NCBI GenBank assembly: GCA_964016885.1
Contig: OZ024750.1
Coordinates: 31,930,001 to 31,994,000, forward strand
Source: Eledone cirrhosa
Lineage: Eukaryota
Direction of reading: 5' to 3'
DNA: 64,000 nt
Shown piece after piece: positions 16,136-64,000 of this stretch. Positions within the stretch are counted from its first letter, which is position 1; each line of letters starts with the position of its first letter. The position numbers and the translations under genes are program-made. Under the pieces are notes generated by a model. It saw only the letters and a program-made list of their open reading frames with translations, was not told the DNA's origin and did no database searches.

Positions 16136-16403
16136 ATATACGATATTAAACAAATGGAAACTATATTTATAAAACCATATTTATTTCATTATACATATTT
16201 CAGGGATACCATATTAAAAATATGGCATGCCTTCTTCAGATAAAATACAATATATAGGCAGTTTTATAAATAAATATGGTTTTATAAATATAGTTTCCAT
16301 TTGTTTAATATCGTATATCTACTCCAAAACTTTTTGAGTGCTTTATATCAGTTATAAAATATTTACTCGTTGTAACCCAACAATTTTAAATAAAACGTTT
16401 GCA
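16136..16403. mobile_element. HHR-bearing PLE-end mini-element (family H1), inverted arms, in (TA)n
   Basis: Arms 16136-16184 and 16269-16318 are inverted; homologous to 20395-20520, 30763-31046 and 49076-49165. Confidence 0.8.
16182..16247 (-). ncRNA. Type I hammerhead ribozyme motif
   Basis: Reverse strand: tattttat-CTGAAGA-aggcatgccata...tatggtatccct-GAAA-tatgta-TA-atgaaata. Confidence 0.8.
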
Positions 16404-17429
16404 TATATATATAATATATATATATATATAATATATATATATATATATATAATATATATATATATATTGTTATATTTGGGGAGGGTCATATTGTTATAAT
16501 ATTGCCAGACATAATACGATTTCATATAGTAAAGTAAAATGACAGTAGGCCAGACAGGTTGAATTTCCTTGCCGCCGAGGTTGACTTTGCCTTTCATCAT
16601 TACGCGGTCGATAAAATAAAGTACCAATAATGCACTGGGTTATTGCTGGCCTTGTGCCTAAAGTAGAAACAATTATTTATTTCTGCAAATAAAGGTGTGG
16701 TGGATTGACAGTATCGGTAGAGGGTCGGACACCATTCTTTCCAGCATAGAGTTACGCTCCTCTGCGGTCTGAGTTCAAATCCTGCCGAGGTTAACTTTGC
16801 CTTTCATCTTTACGGGGTCGATAAAATAAAGTACTTTATGGGATCGCTAAAATAATACACTGGGATAATTGCTGGCCTTGTGCAAAAAGTAGAAACATTT
16901 ATTTATTTCTGCAAACACTGTGCACATTTTAATGGCCAGCTTGCGTAAGAGCCCGGTGACATCTTCAGTTGTAAATTGCATAATAGTTGTATACCAAAGC
17001 AAAGAAAAAAAAACAGAGAAGAAAAAAGTGATTTTATTTTTTGACCCGGAGACGATCGCAGCAGCCTGTTGTTATTATGCCTCGCGGTCCCTGTGTGATT
17101 ATCTTCAGATCTTTCCTGTTAGTTTATTAAGTGCGTAGGAGGATGCACTGCTTATTGCGTGAATGGTATTCATGGGAGTAAAATATATAAAATATAAAAT
17201 ATAGGAATAGAAAATAATAAATAAGGTGTAACAATTAAACAAATAAACAGCAAAGCTTAAAAAACAATAAAGTTTAAAATCAGTGAAGTTTTAAGATTAT
17301 GTTTAAAAACCTGTATATATATATATATATATATATATATATATATATATATATATATATATATATATATATATATATATATAAATATATATATATATAT
17401 ATATATATGTATATATATATATATATTTA

Positions 17430-18182
17430 ATATGTTCAAAGCCATCCTCAGCATTCTCGTGTAGCACCGATCCACCATTTGAGTGAGTTTCTTGGTCAGT
17501 GTCCAGGTCTCAGACCCCTACAGCAGCACAGACTCCACTACAGCAATGAAGAGGCGGATTTTCAGGTATTTACGAAGGTCAGACTTCCACACCGATCTCA
17601 AGCTGTGGCACATCGCCCATGCTTTGCCCTTCCTCTCAAGCACATCATCTTCCGTATCCCCAATTATGCTCCCAAATACAGGAAGTCCTCAACCAATTCT
17701 AGGGGCTTCCCGCCTACATTAGTGATCCCCTATGGCTTCTCAACATTCTCTACCAGATAATTTGTTTTAGTCTCATTCATTCTCAGCGCCACACTCATCG
17801 ACACAGTCTCAACCTCCTGCATCAAATACTCTGCCTCCTTCACTGTATTTATCACCAAAACATTAATCAGTATACACTGAGGATGAAAAACTCAGAGCTG
17901 TATGGGAGCCTCCCAAAAATCAGCTCAATAGTGACACAGAGGAGATTGTGGTTAGCTTGACATGCTCACCGACATCCAGAGTTGACATTGCACTCAGTGC
18001 TCCTTTGGGAGCCCCTACATGGACACACTAGAAGGGCAAGACCAAGGTTAACGTATGTTGATGCCCTAAGAAATAGACACTGGTCTGTTGGAGACGCAGT
18101 ACATGGCAGCGATAATGAGGGATAGAGACCGCTGGAGACAACTCGTCCATGGATCTCGGGAATGTTACCCGCCCTAGCAAAA
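17430..18182 (+). pseudogene. 5'-truncated RTE/RTE-X-like LINE with its 5' half inverted
   Basis: Minus strand 17860->17430 encodes ...VEDFLYLGA...[43 protein letters not shown]; plus strand from about 17859 continues NINQYTLRMKNSELYGSLPKISSIVTQRRLWLA*HAHRHPEL...VLLWEPLHGHTRRARPRLTYVD. Confidence 0.85.
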
Positions 18183-18773
18183 TATATATGTATATATATA
18201 TATATTATATATATATATATGGGATAACAAGTTATCGTTATAGGTAATCCAGTTAGAGGCTGTGAGTATTCTGTATTGTGGATAGTTCTAACGTACGGCG
18301 TTTTTTGACTCAACAAGAGGTTTCCATAGTTAGGTAGCGATTACGCTAGAATTCTATGCAGGTTATTCTTGGAGTAATAATAGTGAAAGATGTTCAAAAT
18401 GGGTTTTATTTCTATTATTAACAATTGTTTCCAATGTAAAGTGAAATGGAGTGGTCCAATCGTCAATCGGCAAATCCGAACGTCTTCTTTTGCATGAGAT
18501 AAGCATTGAGCAATCGGATCTTTCGTGGCTTTACATACACTCACACACACACACACACACACACACACACACACACACACACACACACACACACACACAC
18601 ACACACACACACACACACACACACACACACACACACATATACACACACACACACACACACACATATATATATATATATATATATATATATATATATATAT
18701 ATATATATATATATATAATATTATAATGAAATGACAGGAGGCTCGACTTGTGTAAATCCTTGAAAGGTTTATT

Positions 18774-62290: not shown

Positions 62291-62809
62291 TTTATATTAG
62301 GCAGTCTGTCTCAGACAATTGAATACTGACCCCTCCCCCCCCTCCCACCTAATTTCTGTATCTTGATCTTGAAATGTGTGTGCCAGTGTTTTATGTGAGT
62401 GATTTAATTTCTATGTGCTTATGATTTTATATCCACATATATAAATGTGAGTGGGGGAGTGTGTGTGTTTGTATGTTCGTGGTTATGTGTATATTTATGC
62501 ATATACGCGCATGTATGTGTGATTATACTGATATGTGTGAGTATGAAAAAATATATTTATATGCTTGACTCCATAAGTATCAATGCGCATCTTATCAGCG
62601 CATTAAGCTTACAGAGATATTAACCTTGAAATTTTGTGTTTGCATCCATCTTTTTAGTATGCGTATACAAATTATACACACATTTTTGTAAAATATGTGT
62701 AAGGATTTTACATGTATATACACACACCGAACTGCTTTTAACCCTTTGTGTTTTCATTGGTCAATTTTGAACTGATATTTTGAATTGTTGTTATTATCAA
62801 TAAATATAT

Positions 62810-62964
62810 TTCATTATTTCTGAAGACGGCGTATATATGTGTTAGGTATGTATATTTAATCTTGATAATTTGTATAATTTTGTATAATTTTGTACATAGA
62901 TCTGTTGAATATGCATACCAATTATAACGCATGTATACCCTAGAAACGATCGTTAAATAATGAA
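62810..62964 (+). ncRNA. Type I hammerhead motif in the PLE 3' pLTR, sense to the ORF
   Basis: ttcattattt-CTGAAGA-cggcgtatatatg...(about 90 nt)...catgtatacccta-GAAAC-gatc-GTT-aaataatgaa; 10-bp stem I; predicted cut after 62954. Confidence 0.78.
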
Positions 62965-64000
62965 TTTTTTTGTTTAATATAAGGAATTGTTTATTCATTA
63001 TTTGTTTAATATTTTATATATATATATATATATATATATATATAATAAAGACATTTAAAACATTTTATTCCATACATATTAATCTTTCACATTTTACTTT
63101 CATTATCGCTATTTGTGTTTTACCATTTTCAAATAATTCTCTATGATGTTGATTGTGATATTTTCTCTGCTAAACTCTACTAAAATGTGTTAATAACATC
63201 TTATATGTTATTTAAGACATTGGCTACTAGAAAATTAGAAAAATGCTCTAAGAAGAAGAAAAGAAATGATTTTCTATAAACGTCAAACATGTTCAGTTAT
63301 TTGACTTAATTATTTCATTATATTGTTAAATATTTTATAACAAACTTAGTAACCTAGAGGTTAATCTAAATTGAAGTTAATCCGAGTAAAAATGTATAAG
63401 ATTTGATAAGTTCAACAGCCACATGCGAGGAAATGTGTAGAGTGTTTTGCGTATAAATGTGTTTTCTGTTGTAACCAAGTCAGTAAATAATTGTATTTGA
63501 TGCATGCTGTTTGATGGCGGAATAATACTCAGAATAGATGTCATTCAATATCTGTATATATGTATCCACAGATATTACATTGAAAACACTGTATAATTGT
63601 AATGGCTTGAATAAGGAATATATATATACTTATAAACGCAGAAACACAAGCATGCAAACACTCACACGCACACACACACACAACCACAAATATATATATA
63701 TACACAGTCACATACGCACACATGCATATATATGTATATATGTGTGTGTAACTATGTGTATGTGGGTGTATATATATTCATACATACGTATATAACAAAC
63801 ATGCACACACACACACACATACACACACTCACTCACACTCACACACATATATATATATATACATATATATATATACATATATATATTTACATATTTATAT
63901 ATATATAAATATATCCACATCTATATATCTATATATATATCTATATATCTATATATCTATATCTATATATATATATAGAGAGAGATATTAGAAAGTGAGG

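Follow-up and report, generated by a model that had tools for sequence, protein, structure and literature searches.

The closest described relatives of the elements considered here are Penelope-like elements (PLEs) of the Hydra clade. These are recognised by replacement of DKG with DKT, an RWK motif, a CxCx5C linker, the lack of a CCHH motif, and CxxC/CxH; they also have hammerhead ribozymes and (TA)n targets (PMC8557442). PLE start sites are placed in the pseudo-long terminal repeat (pLTR), and promoters are internal to it. For Craig et al. 2021, how tandem and inverted PLE structures originate and why microsatellites are favoured were open problems (PMC8557442). We analysed 64,000 nucleotides (nt) of Eledone cirrhosa DNA (contig OZ024750.1, positions 31,930,001 to 31,994,000), referred to as the window. 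This stretch has 30% GC, is dense in microsatellites and belongs to contig C10 of a 3.0-Gb genome. It contains about a dozen inverted pairs of PLE ends, many of them miniature units (minis), facing outwards into (TA)n. The minis are probably PLE insertions for which both strands of the target primed complementary DNA (cDNA) on the same RNA, at two sites named P and D, with the cDNA ends joined head to head.

In vitro, both target strands are nicked and extended by the Poseidon element PAc of Anolis, and its reverse transcriptase (RT) starts at two internal sites that define a tail (PMC11167929). As here, targets are AT-rich; the PAc template is uncleaved RNA and the protein is a predicted dimer. 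PAc is from a different clade, however, and starts inside its open reading frame (ORF) rather than 53-155 nt upstream of the ATG. The accessible text of this work gives no model pairing the two starts into an inverted insertion. Penelope of Adineta vaga shares with our elements head-to-head inverted pLTRs, one of them tailed, an initiator-like sequence in the pLTR and palindromic junctions (PMC3846280). Conversely, it has few copies and was explained by self-priming on an antisense template. Minimal hammerheads of PLEs and retrozymes are, like ours, type I with a palindromic loop III and the U3-A8 core variant (PMC4209133; 10.64898/2026.07.22.740005; PMC7229834). In the same sources, opposite-strand hammerhead pairs 100-700 bp apart are ascribed to truncated PLEs. 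Circular templates have been proposed for copies of more than one unit (PMC4209133). Retrozymes form head-to-tail arrays of complete hammerheads, whereas the minis are head-to-head and often have half a ribozyme.

The sequence-only reading of the window had listed 11 places with outward-facing inverted pairs in (TA)n. Using self-BLAST after masking simple repeats, we recovered inverted arms at 10 of them (11473-11553, 16136-16318, 25049-25358, 30768-30954, 31320-31428, 49752-49866, 51473-51735, 52308/52509, 25561/27528 and 56621/63014). At 49452-49596 the arms are below BLAST length and the pair was read by eye. Two units beyond that list begin at 51885 and 52164 (Table 1). Each unit has an additional stretch, the tail, on one side only. 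The units at 16136 and 30763 are related (75-80% identical), as are those at 11387, 31320 and 51885. About seven groups remain after merging related units. Hence, the earlier count of at least six families stands. Flanks are generally (TA)n as described, but those of the 25052 unit are partly (GA)n or (CA)n beside TA, and the right TA tract of the 11387 unit begins ~20 nt away.

Three families tie the minis to PLE machinery, as had been proposed. Family N1, to which the 56484 insertion belongs, is young (copies 98-99% alike) and has a tandem unit of 6,301 nt. Tandem copies on contig C1692 contain the complete 813-amino-acid ORF. Here, YRDD and VY..YIG motifs mark a single ORF with a PLE-type RT and, at its C terminus, a GIY-YIG endonuclease (EN). 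The window copy, previously called intact, is 5'-truncated: its ORF at 56882-59140 is ~109 residues short, and the first 47 codons are inverted arm, read through by chance. DKT, YRDD, CxCx5C and CxxC/CxH motifs are retained. Family A (30763) extends upstream into an RT-EN ORF at locus L099 and, beyond the tail, into an ORF start at L193. Family B (31320) extends upstream into an RT-EN ORF at L226 and L227. All three families have the CxCx5C linker, CxxC and CxH around E and N, and no CCHH. N1 reads SDKTGN and RVRWRAY, with R in place of the K of RWK; the family A copies examined are mutated at the DKT and RWK positions. Pfam gave no significant match for the N1 ORF, and its 116 homologues are almost all unnamed. 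Hence, the PLE call rests on motifs. Tandem and inverted pLTRs, 5' truncation and an optional tail are found as in PLEs, and the pLTR contains a predicted type I hammerhead. By motifs, not by tree, N1, A and B are autonomous Hydra-type EN-positive PLEs in (TA)n. A Nematis-like identity of the ORFs was considered and dropped; the motifs fit Hydra (PMC8557442). For family C (25052), no ORF-bearing master or long copy was found among 20 loci, in a search biased to tailed copies.

The resemblance to the Hydra clade extends to DKT, RW(K/R), hammerheads, (TA)n, an inverted 5'-truncated copy and a tail often at one end only (PMC8557442). The present elements depart from that description in three respects. 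Units are 6.3 kb with a microsatellite-rich 3' untranslated region, compared with generally <3 kb, a size that is not diagnostic. Tails are 82-134 nt, rather than the 30-40 described for PLEs. Motif matches run from thousands to tens of thousands per family; for A and B the majority are in minis.

Loci were drawn by position from the first 100 motif matches on contig C1. The family A sample is all 87 loci of this draw. For family B we took 27 insertions from the first 30 places and 17 selected as pairs (total 44). For N1 we began with 30 loci and added 20 that were short pairs or singles, along with 20 long stretches. Its pair count excludes L305 (an apparent duplicate of L304) and L300, L312, L313 and L314, each with one end outside the stretch. 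Genome-wide, exact motif matches number 1,671 (N1), 3,760 (family A) and 40,175 (family B); these are matches, not copy numbers. Pairs were called automatically in 39 cases for family A, the remainder of 49 being re-called by eye, and in 34 cases for family B, with L232 re-called by eye.

Each family has two fixed outer ends. P is the outer end without the tail and D the outer end with it. They are 89, ~82 and 134 nt apart in the three families. In N1 and A both lie upstream of the ATG, with D-to-ATG distances of 155 nt (N1) and ~53 nt (A). A (TA)3 run begins no more than 16 nt beyond the outer end for 80 of 83, 37 of 44 and 56 of 56 ends in the three families, against a background of 11-16%. 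The proposed targeting of (TA)n is thus borne out. In N1, the RNA sequence past D is ATA, matching the target. Pairs consist of one P and one D in 47/49 cases for family A, 35/35 for family B and 32/33 for N1, or 114/117 overall (p ~1e-30 against a coin toss). In LINE-1 twin priming the second target strand primes a second cDNA, with a microhomology junction, and the cDNAs copy non-overlapping parts of the RNA. Here, by contrast, both cDNAs would copy the same stretch from two fixed starts.

The two arms of an insertion probably also share their template. N1 arms carried the same one of six haplotypes in 13/13 informative pairs (permutation p 5e-6). For family B end segments, the difference was 0.81 within and 3.21 between insertions. 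Arm lengths agree as well: of 33 N1 pairs, 15 consist of two short arms and 15 of two long ones, leaving three that are mixed. N1 spacings are bimodal (<=388 bp or >=3.9 kb). One insertion on C1692 has a D arm of 7 kb and a P arm of ~24 kb in seamless tandem. This contig is small and possibly misassembled; comparable arrays occur on C1 and C2.

Inner junctions vary between copies, and the junction of the window's family A mini occurs once in the genome. One junction (L013/L019) was found at eight loci, with P left in three and D left in four. Because it occurs in both polarities, it must have arisen repeatedly and independently. These observations refute fixed-junction units for family A, one of the forms of self-amplification that the sequence-only reading had left open; re-transcription of minis with variable junctions remains compatible, at lower odds. 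Inserted bases occur at nine of the 33 N1 junctions. Of the 24 without them, 12 show microhomology of at least 3 nt, compared with 8-10% in simulation. Palindromic junctions are common in family B.

Short arms share an inner stop. In N1, 16/30 end within 2 nt of the A of TC[A]TT and none clearly beyond. The same A is at 62813 in the window. Of the 32 family A arms extending as far as -187, 14 end at CC[A]CT within a 5-nt interval. In families B and C, judged visually, the stop is at [A]GT or close to it. Conversely, tandem N1 arms, which are long and complete the unit, passed the stop point in 9/9 cases (Fisher p 0.005). As separate observations, N1 may have a second, minor stop at about unit position 5986, near the stem II base (L268, L295, L277), where two mixed long/short pairs end. 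At L209 and L213, poly(T) runs lie directly 5' of the sense arm at the family B stop. Family A copies such as L099 have, ~30-45 nt upstream of the stop, what we take to be octamer-like and CCAAT-like motifs. In a second organism, one contig has inverted sequence at the stop position, which is too thin to count. For contigs from three runs of unknown kind, no joints were seen.

Hammerhead motifs occur in the window far more often than expected by chance. A strict structural scan of the window gave four matches, compared with 0 in 60 shuffles. A bulge-tolerant scan gave eight, compared with a shuffle mean of 0.1 (maximum 2; 30 shuffles). One of the eight (38100, minus) is outside every unit examined. 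Half cores, comprising the GAAA side only, are at 11523, 25106, 31354/31387, 51666 and 51948. The earlier estimate of about 10 whole or half cores was right, and stems I and II fold as expected in all three ribozyme ranges proposed with it. Among the Rfam matches listed for the window (150 of 278) there was no hammerhead; all were microRNA noise on microsatellites. The N1 hammerhead has a mirror copy in the left arm of the 56484 insertion (core 56815, minus). In family B the ribozyme combines a full stem III with a GUC site and, in 6/8 long copies, a UUGANAA core, matching the reported U3-A8 variant (PMC4209133); L226 carries such a ribozyme.

The following mechanism would account for these footprints. 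Both target strands would be nicked, giving two 3' ends that prime antisense cDNA. Antisense cDNA from both would produce exactly the outward-facing layout. Priming by both strands, suggested in the sequence-only reading, is the simplest reading of that layout. The cause then offered, palindromy of (TA)n, is not supported: strict pairing of two different fixed starts points to the RNA and the enzyme, not to the target. One reverse transcription would begin at P and the other at D of the same RNA, carried out by a dimeric RT-EN in which the second RT displaces the first cDNA. Annealing at microhomology, or joining with inserted bases, would then connect the two ends. The inner stop would be the 5' end of the transcript, at the A of an initiator-like motif. 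Because P and D are within ~340 nt of this putative start, priming in the 5' copy would run off after at most 60-340 nt, and the minis would be the by-products of this. Circular or multimeric (read-through) RNA, with no end at the stop, would be the source of the long and concatemeric copies. Half hammerheads would arise where the start falls inside stem II.

Several observations weigh against this mechanism. We found P+P at L129 and L301, and D+D at L145, L093 and a neighbour in L017. Moreover, 38/87 family A insertions had no second outer end in the stretch examined, and 17/44 family B loci were chosen for being pairs. End segments were identical in only 15/32 family B pairs, and those of L234 seem discordant. 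For nine long N1 arms no partner was seen; scoring all of them as mixed would raise that class to 12/42 (p 0.004). Two RNAs of one locus, or gene conversion between arms, would also produce a shared haplotype. The stop is looser in families B and C than in N1. We take the stop motifs to resemble the initiator consensus, but a 5-nt motif is weak alone. Full-length family A copies began at the stop in 0/4 cases, which are too few to decide and lend no support to a pLTR start there. Among the arms examined, the hammerhead cleavage site has no peak of arm ends. Finally, the start site, cleavage and circles are inferred from DNA ends only.

Could the two arms derive from separate RNAs? Twin priming on two RNAs in a dimeric particle, both from one locus active in the germ cell, would yield the shared haplotype and length class without displacement of the first cDNA by a second RT. 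The predicted dimeric protein of Anolis is in keeping with this (PMC11167929). We think it rather unlikely; on its own, it leaves P on one side and D on the other, in 114/117 pairs, unexplained.

Alternatively, minis might propagate themselves. Transcription of an arm that starts at +1 and contains an internal promoter would continue past P and D as far as the TA flank; the RNA would be mobilised in trans, as for a SINE or retrozyme, acquiring a new junction each round. The abundance of family B motif matches, mostly in minis, is as this predicts, as are the lack of long copies among the 20 family C loci and the promoters internal to PLE pLTRs (PMC8557442). Furthermore, L013/L019 and L338/L339 have a common junction and private variants in different flanks, a hint of occasional copying of whole units. 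Against this, 12/14 N1 mini haplotypes match long-arm haplotypes (by eye), and the anole element needs RNA beyond its start sites (PMC11167929). The head-to-tail arrays of retrozymes were not found either: no tandem hammerhead array was detected, the sole three-copy tandem (L225) is a microsatellite-embedded duplication, and across the 100 listed places of family B a single short tandem occurs, consisting of half cores within TA repeats. We consider self-propagation unlikely.

A similarly low probability attaches to the idea that RT pauses, or the RNA is processed, at the sharp inner stop, which would then not be a transcription start. In its favour, the N1 stop falls on the 5' strand of hammerhead stem I and that of family B is in the stem II loop. 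However, the family A stop is ~80 nt upstream of the hammerhead, where there is no unusual fold (z -0.64). Tandem arms pass the stop, as described above, and in three families it falls on the A of a YYA motif.

Fold-back, where a first strand is made and the inverted arm is copied from it, is very improbable. Self-priming has been proposed (PMC3846280), and would generate both the shared haplotype and palindromic junctions. However, a copy cannot exceed its tailed-cDNA template; in 28/39 family A pairs (hand count) the P arm nevertheless extends further 5', and in the window's N1 insertion it measures 5.7 kb, compared with 0.54 kb. Hence, DNA fold-back fails. Nor can a copy of the P cDNA supply the tail. 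Lastly, there is next to no chance that the units are miniature inverted-repeat transposable elements (MITEs) derived from a DNA transposon that has terminal inverted repeats and duplicates its TA target: the hairpin shape, 150-400 bp size and TA flanks fit, but in place of symmetric terminal repeats and a fixed interior we found asymmetric ends, a one-sided tail, variable junctions and hammerhead arms running into RT-EN ORFs, which rules out MITE identity for families A, B and N1.

Table 1. PLE-derived units and associated features of the window (positions within the 64,000-nt stretch)
Feature	Position	Strand	Description
Older B-related mini	11387-11553		D left, P right
Family A relative	16136-16403		P left with hammerhead (core 16239, minus), D right
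Single A-like P arm	20386-20521	-	Hammerhead core 20492, minus
Family C mini	25052-25432		P left, D right; 3' half hammerhead
Older PLE	25470-28218		Antisense tail; antisense ORF piece 25561-25845; broken sense RT-EN ORF; degenerate hammerhead (core 28168)
Family A mini	30763-31046		P left, D right; hammerhead core 30858 (+); junction unique in genome
Family B mini	31320-31510		P left, D right; hammerhead 3' half only
Single A-like arm	49050-49310	-	Hammerhead core 49157, minus; inner end approximate
Mini related to 25470	49452-49596		Antisense tail left; degenerate hammerhead core 49530
Mini	49748-49938		45-nt inverted arms and right-hand extension; no hammerhead seen; PLE origin suggested by layout only
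Mini	51470-51861		Near-complete hammerhead in left arm (core 51628, minus, by eye); tail right
Family B mini	51885-52143		TA stretch between tail and P site
Family B antisense tail	52164-52249		Paired with very short P-type end
Distant A-like mini	52311-52598		Hammerhead-bearing P arm left (core 52407, minus), D arm right
N1 insertion	56484-63017		D arm antisense 56484-57022; 3-nt microhomology; P arm sense to ~63017
RT and GIY-YIG ORF, 5'-truncated	57029-59143	+	Residues 110-813 of the 813-aa N1 protein
N1 type I hammerhead	62810-62962	+	Long stem II, palindromic loop III

The older element at 25470-28218 has an internal jump into its ORF. At 51296-51437 and 52064-52242, hairpins centred on a TA tract consist of two element ends face to face, probably the result of successive insertions into one tract. 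Similar inverted flanks occur at L182 and L282. Around young N1 insertions, the same interruption is often repeated many times in the TA tracts on both sides; one idea, no firmer than that, is that insertion might expand the flanking tract. An interrupted (TA)n satellite of ~2.7 kb occupies 4700-7420. A 400-bp repeat adjoins TA tracts at 28287-28686 and 50415-50813 (95% identical, opposite orientation). By self-BLAST, a dispersed SINE-like repeat of 100-200 bp has ~20 window copies, including 1270-1660, 4636-4790, 11699-11883, 16572-16915, 39631-39846, 40310-40520 and 49299-49420, and breaks up some PLE arms (L133). The GC-richer region 52735-53466 is a tandem repeat with a period of ~50 bp, the minus strand of which reads Gly/Asp-rich. 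At 10459-10968 (+) there is a separate GIY-YIG fragment (Pfam E 1.8e-4). Its linker is CX4CXXC, and it resembles Neptune or Naiad and differs from the Hydra-type families. ORFs that we take to encode RTE- or CR1-like LINE-type RTs adjoin family B insertions at L203, L216 and L227.

Inverted ends, the tail, hammerheads and TA targeting are already published (PMC8557442, PMC3846280, PMC4209133). In the literature searched, mostly open-access and without supplements, we found no statement of the one-tail rule, the shared haplotype or the run-off stop. Both the type of element and its architecture have been described before; as far as the searches show, the families are new members. Building on priming of both strands from one RNA, we tentatively suggest a wider scheme. 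PLE integration may be asymmetric one-RNA twin priming with two cycles, one producing minis from capped transcripts and the other producing concatemers, of up to ~24 kb per arm, from hammerhead circles. Priming of capped transcripts near the 5' end would give rise to strong-stop hairpin minis in their tens of thousands, of which some would be mobilised again in trans. Unit RNAs circularised by the hammerhead would be copied round the circle to give seamless concatemers. In families B and C the start would be inside the hammerhead; the 5' copy would therefore be a half ribozyme that cannot cut itself off.

In genome annotation such minis would be mistaken for MITEs or for repeats of unknown kind; in this genome, family B by itself accounts for >40,000 motif matches. 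For work in vitro, these families offer a full-length ORF that occurs naturally (813 aa in N1, L061:901-3339), as well as a defined target and defined start sites. Being young and very abundant, they leave traces that can be counted (one tail per insertion, a single haplotype, a single stop) and that constrain how PLE integration may work.

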